This document shows, piece after piece, positions 7,135 through 25,383 of a stretch of 64,000 nucleotides of DNA; positions within the stretch are counted from its first letter, which is position 1, and every line of letters starts with the position of its first letter. The DNA lies in NCBI GenBank assembly GCA_046593725.1, contig JBKJQY010000088.1, positions 8,623 through 72,622 on the forward strand, read 5' to 3'. Source of the DNA: Candidatus Limnocylindrales bacterium (GTDB lineage: Bacteria; Chloroflexota; Limnocylindria; Limnocylindrales; CSP1-4). The notes beneath the pieces are model-generated. The model saw nothing but the letters and a program-made list of their open reading frames with translations. It was not told where the DNA came from and made no database searches. A program made the position numbers and the translations under genes.

Positions 7135-7228
7135 AATACCCCATAGGGGTATTGACAAGAGGATTGACAAATGGGGGTTCTTAGGCGCAAGATGCCGTCA
7201 CTAGGGCTTGTCAAGACTTGACAGGCCC
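7135..7228. promoter_or_regulatory. Palindrome/direct-repeat cluster upstream of dnaG
   Basis: 19-bp palindrome AATACCCC-ATA-GGGGTATT (7135-7153). Direct repeats ATTGACAA at 7151-7158 and 7163-7170. 25-bp near-perfect palindrome GGGCtTGTCAAG-A-CTTGACAgGCCC (7204-7228). Confidence 0.5.
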
Positions 7229-7285
7229 ACAAGCATGTTCGGGACCCGGTCGGATCGGCGGAGGTTCGAGCGGATCACCTGGAGG

Positions 7286-9229
7286 GTGAGCTTGGCGGTC
7301 GGCGTCGCAGCCGAAGTGAAGAGCAAGTTGAGTGTCGTGGACGTGGTCGGCGAGACCGTGGCGCTCAAGAAGGCGGGCACCGTCCTCAAGGGCCTGTGCC
7401 CGTTCCACGGCGAGAAGACAGCCTCGTTCGTCGTCACCCCGAACCGCGAGACATGGCATTGCTTTGGTTGTGGACTGGGAGGCGACATCTTCAGCTTCGT
7501 GATGCAGCGCGACTCCGCCACGTTCCCCGAGGCCCTTCGCACCCTGGCTTCCAAGGCCGGCGTGGAGATCGACGAGCGAACCAAGCGCGAGGACGCGCAC
7601 AAGGCTCGACTGCGTACGGTCATGGACAGCGCGATCGCGTTCTATCACGCCGTGCTCACGGGTTCGAAGCAGGGCGAAGCCGCTCTTGCCTACCTCCACG
7701 GCCGAGGGTTCACCGACGACACGATCAACACCTTTCAGCTTGGCTGGGCGCCCGGTGGCTGGGACACGATGACCCGCCAGCTCGCCGCCAAGCGCGACAT
7801 CCGCGCCGAGGAACTGGTCGAGGTGGGCCTCGCTTCGCCTCGCCAGAACCGCTCGGGCGTCTATGACAAGTTCCGGGCACGTGTCCTCTTCCCGATCCGC
7901 GACCAGAACGGCAGCGCGGTGGGCATGGGCGGCCGTCTGCTCGAAGGCGAGGGGCCCAAGTACCTCAATACCCCGGCGACGCCGTTGTTCGACAAGAGCC
8001 GGACGCTCTACCTCATCGACAAGGCCAAGTCGTCGATCCGCAAGTCCGGCCAGGCGGTCATCGTCGAGGGCTACACGGACGCGCTTATGGCCCACCAGGC
8101 CGGCTTCGACAATGTCGTCGCCTCGCTGGGGACCGCGCTGACGCCCGGTCAGGTCGCCCTCTTGACCCGTTACGCCACACGGATCGCGCTCGCCTACGAC
8201 GTCGATGCGGCCGGCGAGAAGGCGGGCACCGTGGGCGTGACCGCGATCGCCGGGCTGATCGGTCAGCTGCAGCACGGCGACTCGGGGGTGAAGCTGGAAG
8301 ACGTGCGCGTCGTGGGCCTGCCGGACGGCAAGGATCCCGACGATGTCGTCCGCGAGACGCCCGATGTCTGGGCGGCGTCGGTCGCCAGGGCCAAGCCACT
8401 GGTCGAGTACCTCATCGGCTATCACGCGGCGCGGTTCGACCTCAAGACCGCGGCCGGCCGGATCGGATTCGTGGAGGCCGTGATGCCATCGATCCGCGAC
8501 ATCGCCGATCCGCTGCGCCAGGCGGAGGCGTTGGGCGAGGTCCGCCAGGTCTCAGGGGTCGAGGAACGCACGTTGCGCCAGGTCCTGGAGCGGCCCGCCC
8601 GCAACCCGCTGACCGCCGGACAGCGAGGTTCTGGGAGTGGGGGAGCGGCCACCGACGCGCAGAGCCGGATCAGCGCGGAGGCCATCCTGTCCTCGCCCGA
8701 CGCGCTGCCGATCAACGACATCCTGCGAGCGGTCACTCCGGTCGAGAGTGAACTCCTGCGCCTGCTGCTACTGGTCCCGGACCAGCAACTTCGGGTGACC
8801 GAGGAGCTGGGGCCGGACCAGTTGCCCAGCACGGTCGCGCGCGAACTGTTCCGGGCGATCGTGTTCCAGCGCGAGTCCGACGATCAGGGGGTCCACCCGC
8901 CGTTCGATGGCGCGGCGCTGCTGCTGGCGGTCGACGAGGAAACGGCAGCGCTCGCTCGAGCGTTATATGCCAAGCCGGGCCCCGATCCACGCTCGCTCGA
9001 TGCGGGCGATCTTCACTACCAGGTCACCCGGCTGCTCCTCGAGCTCGAGGATGACCAGTTGCGCGAACGCAGCGACTACAACGAGGCCGCCCAGGGCGAG
9101 GCGGAACGAGCGGGCGATCGAGACGCGATCGACCGATTGATGAACGAACGACGCCTGATCAACGAAGCACGGCGGTCACTGGACCGACGGCGCGAAGAGA
9201 CCCGACTGCTCGCCAGTCCCCGGAGGTAA
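7286..9229 (+). CDS. dnaG: DNA primase DnaG
   Basis: Zinc-ribbon [42 protein letters not shown] region [16 protein letters not shown] ... DGKDPDD. Start uncertain: GTG 7286 preferred, ATG 7235 possible. TTG 7208 lies inside a palindrome. Confidence 0.93.
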
Positions 9230-9233
9230 GTCC

Positions 9234-10964
<1,731 letters not shown>

Positions 10965-12920: not shown

Positions 12921-12995
12921 TCCGGCGTAGCTCAGTGGTAGAGCGGGCGACTGTTAATCGCTTGGTCGTAAGTTCGAATCTTACCGCCGGAGCCA
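12921..12995 (+). tRNA. tRNA-Asn (anticodon GTT), CCA encoded
   Basis: Acceptor TCCGGCG/CGCCGGA, D-arm GTAGCTCAGTGGTAGAGC, anticodon loop CTGTTAA, T-arm GGTCGTAAGTTCGAATCTTACC, 3' GCCA. Confidence 0.93.
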
Positions 12996-13121
12996 CTCCC
13001 TCCAGGACTCCCCGTCTCGCGGACGCACCAGAATCCGTTCTGCGCGACCCGTTTTGCGCTGACACCCCGGACGAACGGCGTATCCTGCCCCAGGACGTTT
13101 GGTGTTGGAGGTTGGGGCCCG

Positions 13122-15152
13122 ATGACCCTCATGCAGCGGCTAGAGCGAGTGCAGCGAGCGGCGGAAGCGACTGCCGCGACCGCCGCGGGCACGGTCGCGC
13201 CTGCGAGCGTTCCGGACGCCAGCGTCGTGCCGGCCCCCGCCGTGCCCCCGACGACCGAAGCGAGCGCCCCTTCGTATGGCACCGACCTCGCCCTCGATGC
13301 CCCGCGACAGGATCCCGCCGGCGCGCCCACGATCGAGACCGCCGCGCCGGCCGGGATGACCGCCGCCACGGACGACGCGACCTCGATGGCCGTGCCCGTC
13401 ATGGATCCGGCCATCCCCAAGGTCCCACGGGCCGGCCTCGGCGGCCTTCGCGCGCCGACGGCCCCGGCTCGGGAGAAACTCATCCACGAAGTTCGGGTGC
13501 GCCTCCAGAAGGAAGTCGTCGGGGCCTTCAAGGTGCTGCTGGAGGCGAAGGACGGGGACGTCCGCAAGACCATCGAACCGATGGTCGATCAAGTCGTGGA
13601 GAAGGGTGGGTTCGCCGTCACCCGCGAGGAGCGAACCCGCCTCGTCGATGAGATGGTCCACGACGTCACGGGTTTCGGGCCGCTGGAGCCGCTGCTCGCG
13701 GACCCGAGCATCACCGAGATCATGGTCAACGGTCCCGACCACATCTACATCGAGCGTGGCGGGAAGATCCATCGGGTCGACTCGGTCTTCCTGAACAACG
13801 AGCACGTACAGCGGGTCATCGACCGGATCATCGCTCCGCTCGGCCGGCGCATCGACGAGTCGAGCCCGCGAGTGGACGCCCGCCTGCCGGACGGTTCCCG
13901 GGTCAACGCGATCATCGAACCGCTGTCACTGATCGGCCCCGTCATCACGGTCCGCAAGTTCTCACAGACGCCGTACACGGTCGACGACCTCGTTCGCTTC
14001 GGGACGGCTACGCCCGACATGTTCGAGTTCCTGCACGCGTGCATCGAGGCCCGACTCAACCTCTTCGTGTCCGGCGGCACCGGCTCCGGCAAGACCACGA
14101 CCCTCAACGTCCTCTCGTCGTTCATCGGCAACGACGAGCGCATCGTCACGATCGAGGATGCCGCCGAGCTGCAGCTCCACCAGGACCACGTCATCACCCT
14201 CGAGGCGCGGCCGGCCAACCTGGAAGGGGAGGGCGAGATCACGATCCGGAACCTCCTCAGGAACGCGATGCACATGCGACCCGACCGGATCATCGTCGGC
14301 GAGTGCCGCGCCGGGGAGTCGCTCGACATGCTCCAGGCGATGACGACCGGCCACGACGGTTCGCTCTCGACCGGCCACGCGAATACGCCGAAGGACATGC
14401 TGCGGCGGCTCGAGACGATGATCCTCATGACCGGCTACAAGATGCCGCTGCGGGCGATCCGCGAACAGATCGCCACGGCCGTTGATGTCATCGTCCACAC
14501 CGCGCGGCTCAAGGACGGCCAACGCAAGATCGTCAATATCACCGAGGTCTATGGGATCGAAGAGGACCAGATCCTCACCCAGGACATCTTCGCGTTCGTC
14601 CAGACGGGCTACCGCGACGGCAAGATCGTGGGGTCGCTTCAGCCGACGGGCGCCAGGCCCACGTTCATGCGCCAATTCCAGCGCGCCGGCATCGACCTGC
14701 CGCCCGGCGAGTACGGCATCCCGCCCGAAGACCCGGACAGGCCGATCAAGCCGCTGAAGAGCCGGTTCGGGGCACGTCAGTCCTCGAAGGTCGAGTACTC
14801 GGCCGTGCCGACCGGTGATGGCCGAACCGTCGTCGCGGGCGGGATGGTCTACATCTCATCCATCGGGCCGGTGGATCCGGAGACGGGCGAGGTCGCCCTC
14901 GGGTCGATCAAGGAGCAGACGCGTCGGTGCATGGCCAATCTCAAGGAGCGACTCGAGGGTGCCGGCAGTGCGCTCGACCGGGTGGTCTGGGCGAACTGGT
15001 CCCTGCAGGACGCGAGCGAATTCGACGAATTCAACGACGAGTGGAACCGCTGGTTCCCGGCCGATCCACCGCTCGGTCAGCTCACGTTGATGCCCCCGCT
15101 CCAACGCCGGGCAGGCTTCGGTGTCACCCTCGGGGTCATCGCCACGGTCTGA
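13122..15152 (+). CDS. CpaF/TadA-family type II/IV secretion ATPase fused to a C-terminal RidA (YjgF/L-PSP) domain; Ala/Pro-rich N-terminal extension
   Basis: CpaF core: GFGPLEPLLADPSITEIMVNGPDHIYIERGG, Walker A SGGTGSGKTTTLN, IVTIEDAAELQL, RPDRIIVGECRGAE-like (ECRAGESLDMLQAMTTGHDGSLSTGHAN). After ~residue 545: GGMVYISSIGPVDPETGEVALGSIKEQTRRCMANLKERLEGAGSALDRVVWANWSLQD...GFGVTLGVIA, a RidA pattern. Single uninterrupted 676-aa frame. Confidence 0.8.
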   Translation: MTLMQRLERVQRAAEATAATAAGTVAPASVPDASVVPAPAVPPTTEASAPSYGTDLALDAPRQDPAGAPTIETAAPAGMTAATDDATSMAVPVMDPAIPKVPRAGLGGLRAPTAPAREKLIHEVRVRLQKEVVGAFKVLLEAKDGDVRKTIEPMVDQVVEKGGFAVTREERTRLVDEMVHDVTGFGPLEPLLADPSITEIMVNGPDHIYIERGGKIHRVDSVFLNNEHVQRVIDRIIAPLGRRIDESSPRVDARLPDGSRVNAIIEPLSLIGPVITVRKFSQTPYTVDDLVRFGTATPDMFEFLHACIEARLNLFVSGGTGSGKTTTLNVLSSFIGNDERIVTIEDAAELQLHQDHVITLEARPANLEGEGEITIRNLLRNAMHMRPDRIIVGECRAGESLDMLQAMTTGHDGSLSTGHANTPKDMLRRLETMILMTGYKMPLRAIREQIATAVDVIVHTARLKDGQRKIVNITEVYGIEEDQILTQDIFAFVQTGYRDGKIVGSLQPTGARPTFMRQFQRAGIDLPPGEYGIPPEDPDRPIKPLKSRFGARQSSKVEYSAVPTGDGRTVVAGGMVYISSIGPVDPETGEVALGSIKEQTRRCMANLKERLEGAGSALDRVVWANWSLQDASEFDEFNDEWNRWFPADPPLGQLTLMPPLQRRAGFGVTLGVIATV

Positions 15153-17062: not shown

Positions 17063-17560
17063 TCACTCGAGGTCGGCGCAGGCGATCTTGTTCGGCGCGG
17101 CGGTCGGACGATGGATCACGACGGAAACAGCGCTCGGTCCGGCGGACCAGTCGTTGCTGGCGTAGCCGTTGCCGATGCCGGCCGCGTTGGTCGTGAAGCC
17201 CGGCCAGATCTCGTTCTCGTCGTTCACGGCGGTGCCGTCGTGCTGATAGTGCCCGTCTGCCTGGCCGTTGGTGCAGGACTGCTTGTGGACGTGGGCCGCG
17301 TACGTCGTGTTCGGGGCGAGGCCCTCGACGTGGATGGACACGATCGTGCGGCCGGCCGCGGTCCGGATCATCGTGGCGTGCCCGGTGATGTCCATGGCCG
17401 GCGCCGCTGCGCCTGCCGCGAACTCGGTGAAGGATCCGCGGGTCACGACGGCCCCGCCGGCGGCTGCGGGCAGGACGACGGCCAGCCCGACGAGCAGTCC
17501 GAGCGAAGCGATGACCCCGCGTGCCGCATGGCGTCCGCGGCGACGATCTCGATCGGCCAT
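17063..17560 (-). CDS. Secreted Cu/Zn superoxide dismutase-like family protein (Tat-type signal)
   Basis: MADRDRRRGRHAARGVIASLGLLVGLAVVLPAAAG signal. GHATMIRTAAGRTIVSIHVEGL...AHVHKQSC...DGHYQHDG...AVSVVIH... resembles the SodC-like beta-sandwich. GGAGGA RBS. Confidence 0.6.
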   Translation of the reverse strand: MADRDRRRGRHAARGVIASLGLLVGLAVVLPAAAGGAVVTRGSFTEFAAGAAAPAMDITGHATMIRTAAGRTIVSIHVEGLAPNTTYAAHVHKQSCTNGQADGHYQHDGTAVNDENEIWPGFTTNAAGIGNGYASNDWSAGPSAVSVVIHRPTAAPNKIACADLE

Positions 17561-17707
17561 GGTCCAGGTCCTCCAGTGCGTCGTACAGCGCAAACCGCTA
17601 TAGCGTGACACGATATATAGACCCTCACGATCCCGCTGTCAAGTCGCAGTCGTGCCGCCTGGCTCGGCTCTCAGCGGCGGATGTCGCGACGACGCAACCC
17701 GGTTCGG

Positions 17708-18304
17708 TCAGTTCGCGACGTCGGTCAGGTGGCAGGCCTCGTTCCACGTCTCGACGACGCGGTTCTCACGGTCCCATCCGAGCACCGAGAGAGTGCCGGT
17801 CGAGAGGCTGAACAGGCGACCGAACGACGCCTCGAGATCCAGCCAACGCGCCGCAAGGATCCGCAGCAGGTGACCGTGCGAGAACAGGAGGACGTCGCCG
17901 GGGGCCTCGCGGACGCGAGCCAGGACGCGATCGGCGCGGATCGCCACGTCGTCGATGCTCTCGCCGGCGGGCCATGGACCCGTCCAGATCGTCCATTCCG
18001 GCAGGTCCGCCCTGATCTCCAGCGTGGTCAGCCCCTCCAGGGCGCCATAGTCCCACTCGGCAAGATCCGGCTCGACCCTGGCGACATCGCCGAAGCCCGC
18101 CAGGTCCGCGGTGAGGCTCGCTCGACCCAGCGGGCTCGTCACGACCAGCGCGAACGGCCCGACGGCCGCGAGGCGCGACCCGAGCGCCAGCGCCTGGCCG
18201 CGGCCCTCGTCCGTGAGCGGGATGTCGGTCCGCCCGGTATGACGGCCGAGCGCGGCCCACTCCGTCTGGCCATGCCGGACAAGCCAGAGTCGCTGGGTAG
18301 TCAC
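17708..18304 (-). CDS. Histidine phosphatase (phosphoglycerate mutase) family protein
   Basis: LWLVRHGQTEWAALGRHTGRTDIPLTDEGRGQA (RHG catalytic motif) and later SHGHLLR. Confidence 0.88.
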   Translation of the reverse strand: MTTQRLWLVRHGQTEWAALGRHTGRTDIPLTDEGRGQALALGSRLAAVGPFALVVTSPLGRASLTADLAGFGDVARVEPDLAEWDYGALEGLTTLEIRADLPEWTIWTGPWPAGESIDDVAIRADRVLARVREAPGDVLLFSHGHLLRILAARWLDLEASFGRLFSLSTGTLSVLGWDRENRVVETWNEACHLTDVAN

Positions 18305-18858
18305 GCCGACGTCAGCTCGACATCGGGCCTCGCGGTATCGACCGGGTCGGCCTCGAAGAAGGCTCGCGGGACCCAGCGGAACAGCCAGGCCAGGATGATC
18401 GTGGGCACGGTCGCGATCTTCGTGTCGTAGCGATACACCTGATCGTTGTAGAGCTCACGACGGTCGGCGATGATCCTCTCGATCCGTTCGATCTCGCCCT
18501 GGAGCTCGAGCACATTGGTCCCTGACTTGAAGTCCGGATAGCGCTCGACAACGGCGAATAGCGAGCGGACCGCGCCCGACGTCCGATCCGTTGTCGCCGC
18601 CTGGGATGGGATCGGGTCGGTCGGGGTGTAGGCGGCGCGTGCCTCGGTCACCTCGGTGAGCACTGTCCCCTTGAAGGTCATCAGGCCCCTGACGGCCGCG
18701 ACGAGGTTCGGCAGCATGTCGTGGCGCTGCTTGGTGCTGGTATCGGCGATGCGGTCCGCGGTCCGGTAGCCGATCAGCCCGCGACGCAACGTGGCGACGC
18801 CGATGACCGCCGTGCCGCCCGACAGCGCCGCGATCCGGGGGATGACGACGAGGTCCAA
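18301..18858 (-). CDS. lemA: LemA family protein
   Basis: LPNLVAAVRGL..., VERYPDFKSGTNVLELQGEIERIERIIADRRELYNDQVYRYDTKIATVPTIILAWLF. 4-bp overlap with the downstream phosphatase gene. Confidence 0.8.
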   Translation of the reverse strand: MDLVVIPRIAALSGGTAVIGVATLRRGLIGYRTADRIADTSTKQRHDMLPNLVAAVRGLMTFKGTVLTEVTEARAAYTPTDPIPSQAATTDRTSGAVRSLFAVVERYPDFKSGTNVLELQGEIERIERIIADRRELYNDQVYRYDTKIATVPTIILAWLFRWVPRAFFEADPVDTARPDVELTSA

Positions 18859-18868
18859 ACGGTCAGCC

Positions 18869-19408
18869 CTACCGTCGGCCTGGCGTGATCGAGACGACCA
18901 CCAGGATCAGCCCGATCCCGACCAGGATGAGCGGCCACCACGACCCGAGGTCGATGGCCGGCACGAACTGGCGGAACAGGAAGAACGCGCCGATGAGGAT
19001 GAGGATCAGGCCACCGATCAGCGGCCCGCGGTCCTCACCACGGGCGGCCCGCCGCCGTCGTCGTCGCTCGCGACGCATCACTCCGGCTCCGGTCTCGGGG
19101 GCGGGAGCGGCCGTGGCGGCGAACGCCGCGGTCCGTGCGTCGGGGTCCCCCGGGTCCATCGGTGGGATCGGCGACCCGGTCGGTCCGGTCGGCTCGAGAC
19201 CGGGATCCTCCGGGACGACGATCGCCATCACGATGTAGGCGATCAAGGCGAGGCCGCCAGTCAAGACGATGAGCAGCGCCCAGACGACGCGGATGATGGC
19301 TGGATCGGCGTCAAGGCGTTCGGCGACCCCTCCCGCGACGCCCGTGAGCATCCGGTCGCCGACCGATCGGTAGAGCCGGTCATCCATCGCATCCATCCTC
19401 CGGATCAA
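18869..19408 (-). CDS. pspC: PspC domain-containing membrane protein
   Basis: LYRSVGDRMLTGVAGGVAERLDADPAIIRVVWALLIVLTGGLALIAYIVMAIVVPE. Start ambiguous among three Mets (19408/19396/19387). Confidence 0.85.
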   Translation of the reverse strand: MIRRMDAMDDRLYRSVGDRMLTGVAGGVAERLDADPAIIRVVWALLIVLTGGLALIAYIVMAIVVPEDPGLEPTGPTGSPIPPMDPGDPDARTAAFAATAAPAPETGAGVMRRERRRRRRAARGEDRGPLIGGLILILIGAFFLFRQFVPAIDLGSWWPLILVGIGLILVVVSITPGRR

Positions 19409-20372
19409 GCCTGAACGAGGCGGCGTTGCCAGACGTCCGGAGATCGATCCTCATGGCCGCGCCATCGTAGCCGGAACTCGTCCACGTGGAGCCGTTCTGG
19501 ACAAGGCCGTGGTCCGCGTAGTCGAAGCTCGCGGCGACGCTGTCGGTCGTCTGGAGGCGGAGGCCGGCGCCCTCGGGGACACACAGATTCACGGACCCCG
19601 CGTTCGCCTCGATGGCGCCGGTCAGGCTCAACGCGGGCAACGTGATCCCGACCGCCCCGGCGTTCAACTCGACCTGCAGGTCGCCCATCTGGCGCACGGA
19701 CCCGAGGTCCACCGAGGTCGAGCCGCCGTTGAGGCGAAGCCAGGTCGGCCCCAGGGTGGCACCGGCGAGGTCGAACGACGTGGCGCCGCCGTTGAGCTCG
19801 ACGTCCAGGTCCAGCCGAGGATCCGTCGGAAGGCTGATGGCGATCGTGGAGCGTGCCGAGAAGATGCCGAGTGGCCCGCCGCCATCGGTCGAGCGGATCG
19901 TCAGGCTGTCCGGGCCTGCCTTCACCTCGGGTCCGTCACCGTCCCAATCCCGGCCCGTCATGCCCCATGTCGTACCGGGCGCCATCGAGACGTCCAGGTC
20001 GCCACAGTTCGCCGCGACCTGGACGGTCGCGGCCGTCGCGGCGAGGGACCCGGTCCGGTCCGCGAAGGCACGGCCGTGGGCCGGGTCCCCGCAGGCGCCT
20101 GCAGACAGGTTCCCGGCGCCACCCAGGCCCGCGCTCAGCAAGCCGCCGACCATGAGCCCGAACGTGGCCGCGACGATCAGGGCGCCGACGAAGGCGAAGC
20201 GCGATCGACCGAGCAACAGCCCGACGCCCAGGCCGATCAGGATCATCGGCCACAGGGTCCACAGGTCGCTGACCTGGGACTCGGTCAGGACGCCCGCCCG
20301 GACCGCCAGGGGGATGGCGCCGGCGAGGATCAGGAAGACGCCCCAGCCGAAGGCGCCTCGTCGGATGTGCAT
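19380..20372 (-). CDS. Membrane protein with LiaF/LiaG-like (toastrack, beta-helical) C-terminal domain
   Basis: N-terminal TM helices (GWGVFLILAGAIPLAV, WPMILIGLGVGLLLG, FVGALIVAATFGLMVGGLL). C-terminal repeated 'LDVELNGGATSFDL / LRLNGGSTSVDL / LQVELNAGAVGITL / IEANAGSVNL' strands. Adjacent to pspC. Confidence 0.6.
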   Translation of the reverse strand: MHIRRGAFGWGVFLILAGAIPLAVRAGVLTESQVSDLWTLWPMILIGLGVGLLLGRSRFAFVGALIVAATFGLMVGGLLSAGLGGAGNLSAGACGDPAHGRAFADRTGSLAATAATVQVAANCGDLDVSMAPGTTWGMTGRDWDGDGPEVKAGPDSLTIRSTDGGGPLGIFSARSTIAISLPTDPRLDLDVELNGGATSFDLAGATLGPTWLRLNGGSTSVDLGSVRQMGDLQVELNAGAVGITLPALSLTGAIEANAGSVNLCVPEGAGLRLQTTDSVAASFDYADHGLVQNGSTWTSSGYDGAAMRIDLRTSGNAASFRLDPEDGCDG

Positions 20373-23624: not shown

Positions 23625-24626
23625 CTAGTAGGTGGAGTCGTCGCTCCGGACGAGGGCGATCGCATTCTCCAGCCTGAGCTTGGAGATCGTAAGGTACTTG
23701 GCCAGGTTGGCCCGGTCCGTGGCGGGGATGGACTCCCGGATGTCGGTGCTCCGCAAGACGTCGACGAGACCCTCGATCGCGTCGGCCAGGTGCTGCTTGG
23801 CGTTGACGAGGGAGTCGTCGGTGAGGGCCACGGCGTGCCATGGCTCGGCGACCTCCTCGGCGGCGTCAGCTGCCGCCGGTTCCTCGGTGGCGTTGTCGAT
23901 CTCCTCGACCTGGCGTGGGGTCCTCGCCGGCCGACCGTCGATCTTCTCGCGAAGCTTGATGAGGGTCAGCTCGCCGCGCGCGACCTGCTCGGTCAACCGT
24001 CGGCGCTTCTTGGGGTCCTCGACCTTCATCAGCTCGTAGGCATGCGACAGGCTGTCTTTGCGCAAGGACACCAGTTCGCGGATCTCATCGGGTGCGCCGG
24101 CGAGGCGTAGCCGATTCTCGAGGTAGCCCTTGTCCTTGCCCAGTTTCTCGGCGAGCTTCCGGATGCTGTAGCCATGCTCGTGGACCATCCGGTCGTACAT
24201 GGCGGCCTCGTCGAGAGGCGTGAGGTCTTCGCGCTGGAGGTTCTCGATGATGGAGATCTCCAGGGCGGTGTCGTCGTCGATCTCCTCGATGAGGGCGGGG
24301 ATGGACACGAGCCCGGCAAGACGCGACGCGCGCCAGCGCCGCTCGCCGGCGACGATCTGATATCGGTTGGGTCCGATGGGGCGAACGAGGATCGGCTGCA
24401 GGACGCCATGTTCGCGGATCGACGACGCGAGTTCCTCGAGGGCGCTCTCTTCGAACAGGACGCGGGGCTGCTTCGGGTTCGGGTCGATACGGTCGATAGG
24501 CACGATCCGGACACCAACGCTGCGCGTCGGGCTGTCCGGAGTCAGGAGGCTGACGATGGCGGGGGACAGCTCGCTGTCCTCGGACAGCCGCCGTGCGGCG
24601 GCGGCTCGGAAATCGGTCCTAGCCAA
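23625..24626 (-). CDS. parB: Chromosome partitioning protein ParB/Spo0J
   Basis: [37 protein letters not shown]...[18 protein letters not shown]...[16 protein letters not shown]; [24 protein letters not shown]. Confidence 0.93.
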
Positions 24627-25383
24627 GGTTGATCACCTCCTGGGCGAGATCGCGGTACTGCTTCGCGGCATCCGTGCTGCTGGCGTACGACGTGATGGGC
24701 CGGCCGACGAGGGGAGCCTCGCCCAACTTCACGGTGTTGCGGATGATGCTGTGGAAAACGTGATGGTCGCCGACGACGCGTAACTCCTCGAGCATGTCCT
24801 TCGCCAGGTTGGTGCGACCGTCATAGAACGTCGCGAGCAGGCCCAGAACGCGCAGATCCTTGTTCAGCTTCAGGCGGATCGCATTGATCACCTTGACGAG
24901 GTTGTTGAGGCCCTTCAGCGCGTAGTACTGCGTCTGGACGGGGATGATGACGCCAGTCGACGCCACGAGGCTGTTGACCGTCAGCAGGCCGAGGTTGGGC
25001 GGGCAATCGATCAGCACGTAGTCGTAGTCGGCTAGATGGCCGTCCAGCGCCTCGCGCAGGATCTGTTCTCGGCCGAGGGCGGTGAACAGTTCTCCTTCCG
25101 TCGACGCCAGATCGATATGCGCCGGGGCGACGAAGACGCCGTCCGTCTCGGTCGGCAGGATGACCTCCGCCAACGTGGACCGGCCGTCGGCGAGGACGTC
25201 CGCCATCGAGCGTTCGATCGTGTTGAGGTTGATGCCGAGTCCGGCAGTGAGATTCGCCTGCGGGTCCATGTCGACACACAGGACGCGAAGTCCGGTCTCG
25301 GCGAGGGCGCCGGCGAGGTTGATCGCCGTCGTCGTCTTACCGACGCCGCCCTTCTGGTTCGCGATCGAGATCACGTTCGTCAC
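24619..25383 (-). CDS. parA: Chromosome partitioning ATPase ParA/Soj
   Basis: Deviant Walker [38 protein letters not shown]. 8-bp overlap with parB. Confidence 0.95.

Follow-up and report, generated by a model that had tools for sequence, protein, structure and literature searches.

The motor ATPases of Tad (type IVc) pili are of the CpaF/TadA type, and in the Caulobacter protein Loop 8 (D208) and the Central Loop (E331-G334) contact the CpaG/CpaH platform (Hohl et al. 2024, PMC11300603). How one CpaF drives both extension and retraction of the pilus is an active question, and the newest proposal is a physical inversion of the hexamer, with the N-terminal face on the platform for extension and the C-terminal face for retraction (Whitfield et al. 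2026, bioRxiv 10.64898/2026.02.24.707734). AlphaFold3 models, point mutants and an mCherry fused artificially to the C-terminus underlie this proposal; in the same preprint, R387A in CpaF impairs retraction, a C-terminal mCherry on Caulobacter CpaF abolishes observable retraction, ‘single-orientation’ CpaFs have degenerate C-face motifs, and PilB and PilT dock via opposite faces. Rid proteins are described as homotrimers, and Arg105->Ala nearly abolishes imine hydrolysis by the plant and Salmonella RidA (Niehaus et al. 2015, PMC4433059). Tyr17 and Glu120 are proposed substrate-site residues of RidA. Here we describe a single gene in which a CpaF-type ATPase is joined to a RidA-like domain, carried by a stretch of 64 kb (68.7% GC; hereafter the window) from a Candidatus Limnocylindrales bacterium (contig JBKJQY010000088.1). 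The CpaF and RidA families are themselves known; what is new is the union of a CpaF motor with a RidA fold that has been recruited and is catalytically dead.

The fused gene and its conservation

The gene was read as one uninterrupted frame of 676 amino acids from its ATG to the stop codon at 15150-15152, as an earlier sequence-only reading of this stretch had claimed, and its GC content at third codon positions (GC3) of 0.89 is that of real coding sequence in the window. The ATG is supported as the start codon because the N-terminus MSLLQRMERAQ is conserved among homologues. The features below, in window coordinates, were obtained from the open reading frame (ORF), profile searches, structural alignments and the predicted model.

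13122-15152, + strand: whole gene, CpaF-type ATPase followed by a RidA-like domain
13122-13187, + strand: conserved N-terminal helix, residues 1-22 (helix at 3-22 in the model), common to the unfused CpaF of Limnocylindria Tad loci (MSLLKRIERA...)
13188-13463, + strand: Ala/Pro-rich, disordered and variable tail, residues 23-114, gap-rich in alignments and equivalent to CpaF NTD0 (as in PMC11300603)
13464-13991, + strand: CpaF N-terminal domains (three-helix N1D and N2D), residues 115-290, from alignment to 9e24/8rkl
13842-13868, + strand: Loop 8, GRRIDESSP, residues 241-249, inside the N-terminal domains
13992-14696, + strand: ATPase C-terminal domain (CTD), residues 291-525, with a C-terminal motif ending ...RAGIDLP
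14073-14099, + strand: Walker A, GGTGSGKTT, in the CTD
In the CTD, + strand: Asp box IEDAAEL, Central Loop LEGEGE, Walker B DRIIVGECRAGE and His box
14697-14816, + strand: Pro-rich linker, residues 526-565 (40 amino acids), with a conserved K-S-R-F/W-G motif
14817-15149, + strand: RidA-fold domain without the catalytic Arg, residues 566-676 (the Arg105 position is taken by G652 and the Gly31 position by S580; an inserted loop, PPLQRRAGFG, contains R663)

Searches with models of both families placed both domains above the Pfam cut-offs: T2SSE (PF00437) at residues 183-459 (E=4.8e-61; 206.9 bits, cut-off 24.9) and Ribonuc_L-PSP (PF01042) at residues 569-648 (E=2.3e-14; 53.9 bits, cut-off 27.3). 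The best NCBIfam matches were TadA/FlaI/VirB11-type ATPases and, for the C-terminal region, TIGR00004 (‘Rid family’), all below their curated cut-offs (TIGR03819, ‘TadA family conjugal transfer-associated ATPase’: 328.4 bits, cut-off 373.15; TIGR00004: 48.9 bits, cut-off 106.25). Caulobacter CpaF structures (9E24, 8RKL) matched residues 60/151-525 at E~1e-116 (5.6e-117 to 9e24 over residues 60-524), and CpaF structures were also the top Foldseek matches, with 46% identity to Caulobacter CpaF in the Foldseek alignment. Among 118 homologues, conservation over the motif stretches (Walker A, Asp box, Walker B, His box) is 97-100%, bar a few non-catalytic columns, and the catalytic K324, E345 and E394 are present in 70 of 70 genes; here and below, residue counts out of 70 refer to the fused genes from 70 species. 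The complete CpaF core reported by the sequence-only reading is thus borne out, and the gene is predicted to encode a catalytically competent hexameric motor ATPase of the CpaF/TadA type. The Ala/Pro-rich N-terminal tail of that reading holds for residues 23-114 (14-19% identity and 38-46% gaps over residues 26-100, with a predicted local distance difference test score (pLDDT) <50 in the model), and it had missed that the first 22 residues are a conserved helix.

Protein sequence search was performed against 5.8 billion proteins, and the 120 best clusters were found at 70-93% identity. When the window protein was looked up by exact match, the contig index had no entry for it. PF00437 and PF01042 occur together in >110 of these clusters, in proteins of 556-809 amino acids that bear the database names ‘pilus assembly protein CpaF’ (JGI) or ‘ATPase, T2SS/T4P/T4SS family [Candidatus Limnocylindrales bacterium]’ (NCBI). 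A GTDB scan with one genome per species gave 230 matching stretches, of which the best 80 were examined: the junction was spanned in all, and they come from Chloroflexota/Limnocylindria metagenome-assembled genomes (MAGs), except four with other labels. These four contigs (DASPHN010000010.1, DATLVO010000230.1, JAVHVL010000146.1 and CAZVPS010000035.1; our loci L007, L050, L075 and L056) carry the MAG names Saccharimonadales, Verrucomicrobiia, Pseudonocardiales and Anaerolineaceae, respectively; their fused genes show 64-79% identity, and they are most likely mis-binned Limnocylindria contigs. Near-complete Limnocylindria MAGs from long reads also have the fused gene, among them CAWEMV010000002.1 (3.13 Mb), CAWGCS010000001.1 (2.69 Mb) and ENA ERZ25039600 contig_5603 (3.12 Mb).

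A single open frame crosses the ATPase/RidA junction in all 82 fetched loci carrying the gene, and these loci differ in assembly and in sequencing technology. Homologues align without gaps over the linker and the RidA-like module, and G532, I533, P534, D537, P541, K546, R548, G550 and A551 of the linker are invariant. Nonsynonymous (dN) and synonymous (dS) divergence were 0.19 and 0.70 for the RidA-like module, 0.09 and 0.54 for the ATPase CTD, and 0.78 and 1.16 for the disordered tail (pN/pS 0.82); purifying selection acts on the linker and on the RidA-like module. With the tail left out, the identity of the fused protein is 0.77, compared to 0.79 for leucyl-tRNA synthetase (LeuRS) in the same genome pairs, and in 498 of 507 genome pairs its conservation exceeds that of six other shared neighbours. 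The fused gene behaves as a vertically inherited core gene.

The sequence-only reading had allowed for an assembly artefact, in which a missed stop codon or a frameshift joins separate cpaF and ridA genes. The chance of this is vanishingly small, because the single frame, the paired domains and the invariant linker residues recur across independent assemblies, which refutes it. No support for it was found beyond a few broken copies (P0110, P0159, P0191) and contig-edge fragments (P0122, P0124). Candidate stand-alone genes for the RidA-like module were rejected: the short matches concerned (P0122, P0124 and others) start 13-47 nucleotides from contig ends, and in L085, where the DNA could be read, the frame is open to the edge. 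Internally frameshift-garbled copies of the fused gene (P0110, P0159, P0133, P0191, P0126 and L014:9043-10168) probably stem from assembly or sequencing errors, and it is this garbling that leaves P0110 without a PF01042 match and makes some fragments resemble separate genes. Two partial fused proteins in NCBI, HEV8281464.1 and HEV8282537.1, have accession numbers ~1,070 apart and may come from one assembly, in which case they represent one gene split over two contigs or else two gene copies. The CpaF-RidA fusion is natural and is conserved in the sampled Limnocylindria-type Chloroflexota genomes.

The last 149 residues match many RidA/YjgF structures (~1e-13), and the RidA part of the model (pLDDT 80-93) aligns to RidA structures by Foldseek with a template modelling score (TM) of 0.78-0.90 and a root-mean-square deviation of 1.4-1.6 Å. 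The C-terminal RidA deaminase of the sequence-only reading is upheld as a fold and given up as a deaminase. When aligned by HMMER, ST0811 (1X25) has its catalytic Arg, in ‘..PPAR’, opposite Gly652, and the Arg105 position (E. coli/Salmonella numbering) is Gly in 70 of 70 genes. The Gly31 position is Ser in most fused genes, the Tyr17 position is Gly or a gap (the alignment of this N-terminal strand being less certain), and the Glu120 position is Ser/Thr, Glu120 being absent from the nearest stand-alone relatives too. These nearest stand-alone RidAs are 38-44% identical, have NEEW.(K/R)WFP..PPARQG as a common signature and retain the catalytic Arg as well as Tyr17 (YSQ), so the loss of Arg and Tyr is specific to the fused clade. 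What this clade has gained is the loop PPLQRRAGFG, in which R663 is conserved in 68 of 70 genes, and several Trp and Phe residues of the module are invariant, W623, W626, W641 and W644 being among its conserved residues; we infer that R663 and these aromatic residues line a remodelled, still functional cleft.

Because the catalytic Arg is missing, the RidA part does not read as a working enamine/imine deaminase. It is highly improbable that the protein is a bifunctional enzyme in which an active RidA-type deaminase, detoxifying reactive intermediates, is merely tethered to the ATPase. The RidA fold, the PF01042 score above cut-off and the position of RidA-subfamily proteins as the closest relatives of the module speak for such an enzyme; against it stand the Gly at the Arg105 position throughout the clade, where a change to Ala leaves plant and Salmonella RidA nearly inactive (PMC4433059), the replaced Tyr17 and Gly31, and a TIGR00004 score below cut-off. 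Judged by its residues, the domain lacks what imine/enamine deamination needs and would not be a canonical deaminase. By sequence the module comes from the RidA subfamily; in lacking the Arg it may resemble Rid4-7.

A partial match was found between the module and the PADLOC profile PD-T4-2_B (residues 570-648 against profile positions 188-266 of 294, 79 residues, E=2.3e-9), and for this reason that anti-phage protein appears to contain a RidA-like region. Membership of the PD-T4-2 anti-phage system was rejected: the resemblance is at the level of the domain, the neighbours of the fused gene are housekeeping genes, and no partner gene is conserved.

Kinship with Tad motors and the two motor faces

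A TadC-like query retrieved T2SSF proteins labelled ‘Candidatus Limnocylindria bacterium’, and on the contigs concerned there are canonical Tad loci (Flp pilin, RcpC/CpaB, REC-ParA CpaE/TadZ, CpaF, TadB, TadC, a two-component system, TadE and TadG). The CpaF of these loci has 454-488 amino acids and no PF01042 (e.g. MGH2445261.1, HET8777362.1; loci L087-L092). It is the closest relative of the fused ATPase, with 62-64% identity overall and 74% in the core (outgroup: 57%), and it terminates in ...LPPNIFGSPF at the point where the fused linker begins. In a neighbour-joining tree the fused and Tad-locus CpaF clades are reciprocally monophyletic sisters. From this sister relationship, the shared N-terminal helix and the matching C-terminal end, the fused gene is judged to derive from the lineage's own Tad motor, that is, to descend from the Tad-pilus CpaF of the Limnocylindria lineage.

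The residues proposed to contact the platform in extension are kept in the fused clade: D245 (Caulobacter D208) in 70 of 70 genes and, in the EGxG of the Central Loop, E368 in 69, G369 in 68 and G371 in 70. On the proposed retraction face, the position of R387 (K424 in the fused protein) is Lys in 34, Arg in 12, Pro in 9 and Ala in 4 fused genes, compared to Arg in 120 of 120 Tad-locus CpaFs, and is unconstrained in the fused clade. The beta13-beta14 turn is EDDE in the fused clade and EGDV in Caulobacter and in the Tad-locus clade.

We favour, with a probability of roughly 0.45, the reading that the fused protein is a motor of the Tad type and that the RidA-derived module, which probably trimerises, caps or gates its C-terminal face. 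With its N-terminal face, such a protein would still dock on a T2SSF-type platform, and it would burn ATP as CpaF does. As Rid proteins are homotrimers, the six RidA-like domains of a hexamer could form two trimers beside the C-terminal face, an arrangement that would match the C2 dimer-of-trimers symmetry of CpaF. The appendage might then bias or lock the motor in the extension orientation, as can be reasoned from the C-face being the proposed retraction face and from the block of retraction by a C-terminal mCherry; alternatively, it might gate inversion by means of its long linker and of a ligand or peptide bound in the remodelled, conserved cleft. The outcome would be a lineage with a second, specialised Tad motor or with a one-way motor. 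More tentative, and somewhat doubtful, is the proposal that nature uses the RidA-derived domain to lock or gate the orientation of a Tad motor, with two trimers on the CpaF C-face preventing inverted docking or controlling it in a ligand-dependent way, that fused and unfused CpaF form a PilB/PilT-like two-motor Tad system, and that a dead metabolic enzyme was recruited as a steric and oligomeric cap.

Several observations weigh against a capped Tad motor. No Tad platform, pilin or peptidase gene was found near the fused gene in 84 sequences (83 loci and the window), in agreement with the absence of pilus partners noted by the sequence-only reading; this search covered ±10 kb of the fused gene in the 83 loci (1.42 Mb in total) and was performed by using Pfam labels, ORF clustering and tblastn with distant and lineage-matched Tad proteins. 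No contig or assembly across the match lists was shared by a fused gene and a Tad locus, which we do not read as absence; neither the proximity of NCBI accessions nor a Tad-locus CpaF on a 2.24-Mb contig (ERZ25039576 contig_34056) gave a link. The NCBI labels differ, named fused proteins being mostly ‘Limnocylindrales’ and named Tad-locus proteins ‘Limnocylindria’ or ‘Chloroflexota’. The fused clade's C-terminal motif is itself not degenerate, and the 40-residue flexible linker may keep the appendage clear of the C-terminal face. In the full-length AlphaFold2 model (50 close homologues) the ATPase part is poor (pLDDT 55.9) and the RidA part alone is usable, and a model of the C-terminal region only (18 sequences) reached a pLDDT of 42.5. 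Finally, the inversion model itself is available as a preprint only (bioRxiv 10.64898/2026.02.24.707734).

The differing labels of the named carriers also speak for another reading, in which the fused gene is, in the lineages that have it, a relocated orthologue, and not a paralogue, of the Tad-locus CpaF and would be the only motor of a Tad pilus encoded elsewhere. The 74% core identity between the sister clades lies close to the lowest identity within the fused clade (73%), and the platform contacts are retained. However, each of the six distinct Limnocylindria-type Tad loci contains its own CpaF, with no ATPase-less locus seen among them, and some fused genes lie in MAGs labelled ‘Limnocylindria’ (L041, L068, L071). 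Tad ATPases are, moreover, almost always encoded inside the tad locus, and we regard a sole, relocated motor as distinctly unlikely.

CpaF modules in tandem were observed in two further loci. In the 1,156 amino acids of P0003 (L083:10001-13471; similarly P0012), the CpaF ATPase module is repeated three times in tandem, with 52-53% identity of each copy to the window protein. The Tad locus around it is complete, with an A24 peptidase, two T2SSF genes, TadE and TadG. A hexamer would need two of these three-module chains, which would parallel, in covalent form, a trimer-forming appendage on CpaF. In P0056 (L084:631-3390), two CpaF modules are followed by a separate T2SSE gene.

Genomic setting

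The window is core chromosome, with TCA-cycle and related central-metabolism genes in addition to the features listed below, and the immediate neighbours are as the sequence-only reading had named them.

7208-10964: dnaG and rpoD, upstream of the fused gene
12921-12995: tRNA-Asn, upstream of the fused gene
13059-13086, + strand: sequence matching a sigma-70-like promoter (CTGACA-16-TATCCT), located after tRNA-Asn and before the start codon (1 site compared to 0.1 expected in shuffles; consensus match only)
Beside the fused gene, minus strand: rhodanese, then SRPBCC and PadR
23625-25383: parA-parB, ~9-10 kb downstream of the fused gene
46-63 kb: dcw cell-division cluster

An RNA search upstream of the fused gene returned the tRNA only, with no riboswitch or other RNA. 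No Tad gene was found in the 64-kb window by Pfam searches of 41 ORFs (including the fusion ORF) or by tblastn with two Tad protein sets. Clustering of ORFs across the 83 loci gave no conserved operon partner, the commonest neighbour families being present in at most 20 of the 83. By Pfam these were a PD40 beta-propeller protein, a zinc alcohol dehydrogenase (Zn-ADH), DUF6194, a TPR protein and YgjP; LeuRS, DNA ligase, HisKA_3 kinase and PspC, recognised by sequence or by the Pfam labels of related loci, were also among the commonest.

This setting bears on the proposal, raised in the sequence-only reading and kept here as one option, that the motor was repurposed: the fused ATPase would have left Tad pili to power another, housekeeping-like process, with the RidA-like domain binding a substrate, ligand or partner. 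The gene is an orphan in every locus, with no neighbour family present in more than 20 of 83 loci, it is conserved to a degree resembling LeuRS and is found in contexts such as dnaG-rpoD, LeuRS, enolase and pyrimidine synthesis, no genome was shown to contain both it and a Tad locus, and its NCBI name is that of a T2SS/T4P/T4SS-family ATPase and not of CpaF. Against this must be set the kinship with the Tad-locus CpaF, down to a common N-terminal helix, and the near-invariance of Loop 8 D245 and the Central Loop EGxG across 70 species, which is hard to explain without a T2SSF-type partner. We know of no CpaF-like ATPase that works without a polytopic platform partner, and consider a repurposed motor fairly unlikely.

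Some neighbours were noted in their own right. At 2-5 kb downstream of the fused gene, the window (17063-20372, minus strand) has a PspC / LiaI-LiaF-like module for envelope stress, accompanied by a LemA protein and a histidine phosphatase; L002 (16310-19192) has a comparable one 4-7 kb downstream, in which a HisKA_3 sensor kinase and a response regulator are present. PspC-like neighbours were found in 11 of 83 loci and HisKA_3-like neighbours in 16 of 83, and their recurrence is probably residual synteny. A ParA/MinD-like ATPase gene is located directly downstream, on the opposite strand, in L029 (10832-11773) and L074 (10736-11668; minus strand in both); the encoded proteins show 28-30% identity to the ATPase part of the Tad-locus CpaE/TadZ. 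Directly downstream of the most divergent full-length fused member (P0123), an ORF of 140 amino acids belongs to the phage-integrase family (L086:12103-12525); no integrase turned up among the window ORFs scanned. With regard to horizontal transfer beside tRNA-Asn, the GC content of the fused gene is like that of its surroundings, and its neighbours vary between genomes.

Significance and comparison with known systems

Full-text literature searches returned no paper describing a CpaF + RidA architecture, in line with the sequence-only reading, which knew of none, and it is absent from the passages of the Rid-family survey PMC4433059 that were consulted. The sole paper pairing ‘Limnocylindr*’ with ‘Tad’ was set aside, as TAD there denotes sequencing depth. 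The fused sequences are already public under generic names; of the architecture itself we found no description.

The fused gene is a C-terminal CpaF fusion made by evolution, strongly selected and spread across a lineage of uncultured Chloroflexota that recurs in soil and freshwater metagenomes. Its unfused sister exists in the same class, and the two clades differ at the residues singled out by the inversion model (R387 and the beta13-beta14 turn), so that the fused/unfused pair offers a comparative and transplantable test of that model, and the fused gene may be a natural test of motor reversal. If the protein is independent of pili, a major soil lineage would instead have in it a conserved secretion-type motor that is an orphan. 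The fused protein is also a clean example of a RidA fold stripped of its catalytic residues and recruited as a structural or regulatory module.

Compared to CpaF/TadA of Tad pili (Caulobacter; 8RKL, 8RJF, 9E24-9E29), the fused protein has the same order of NTD0, N1D, N2D and CTD and all catalytic boxes, and the platform contacts of Loop 8 and of the Central Loop are conserved in both; it differs in ~150 extra C-terminal residues, in its place outside any tad locus, in the lack of conservation at R387 and in the altered beta13-beta14 turn. The unfused Tad-locus CpaF of the lineage shares the N-terminal helix and the C-terminal motif as far as ...GI.LPP. Unlike the fused gene, it lies between a CpaE/TadZ-like gene and TadB/TadC, beside Flp, RcpC, TadE and TadG, and it has R387, G444 and V446 as in Caulobacter in 118-120 of 120 sequences, whereas the fused clade differs at these positions.

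Caulobacter CpaF-mCherry likewise carries a folded domain on the CpaF C-terminus, beside the proposed retraction face. That fusion is artificial, whereas the fused gene is natural, conserved and under selection, and by analogy with Rid proteins its appendage would have an obligate-trimer fold, held on a 40-residue linker. The comparison with PilB/PilT of type IVa pili applies if the fused gene and the Tad-locus CpaF coexist, when they would be two paralogous motors, one of them encoded elsewhere. The genes pilT and pilU are usually encoded away from the assembly genes. Unlike PilT, the orphan paralogue would be extension-biased, because by the logic of the preprint the appendage hinders the retraction face.

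On the side of the RidA subfamily of the Rid family, the fold of the fused module is the same and NEEW.(K/R)WFP is shared; the module differs in Arg105->Gly, in the replaced Tyr17 and Gly31, in the extra loop, and in that it never stands alone. Proteins of ~400 amino acids with three tandem RidA domains (P0130, P0145, P0148, P0153 and others) rank just below the fused family among the relatives of the module, and correspond to the ‘3x-RidA’ of Niehaus et al. 2015 (PMC4433059). In these covalent trimers, as in the fused protein, RidA folds are covalently joined to other modules.

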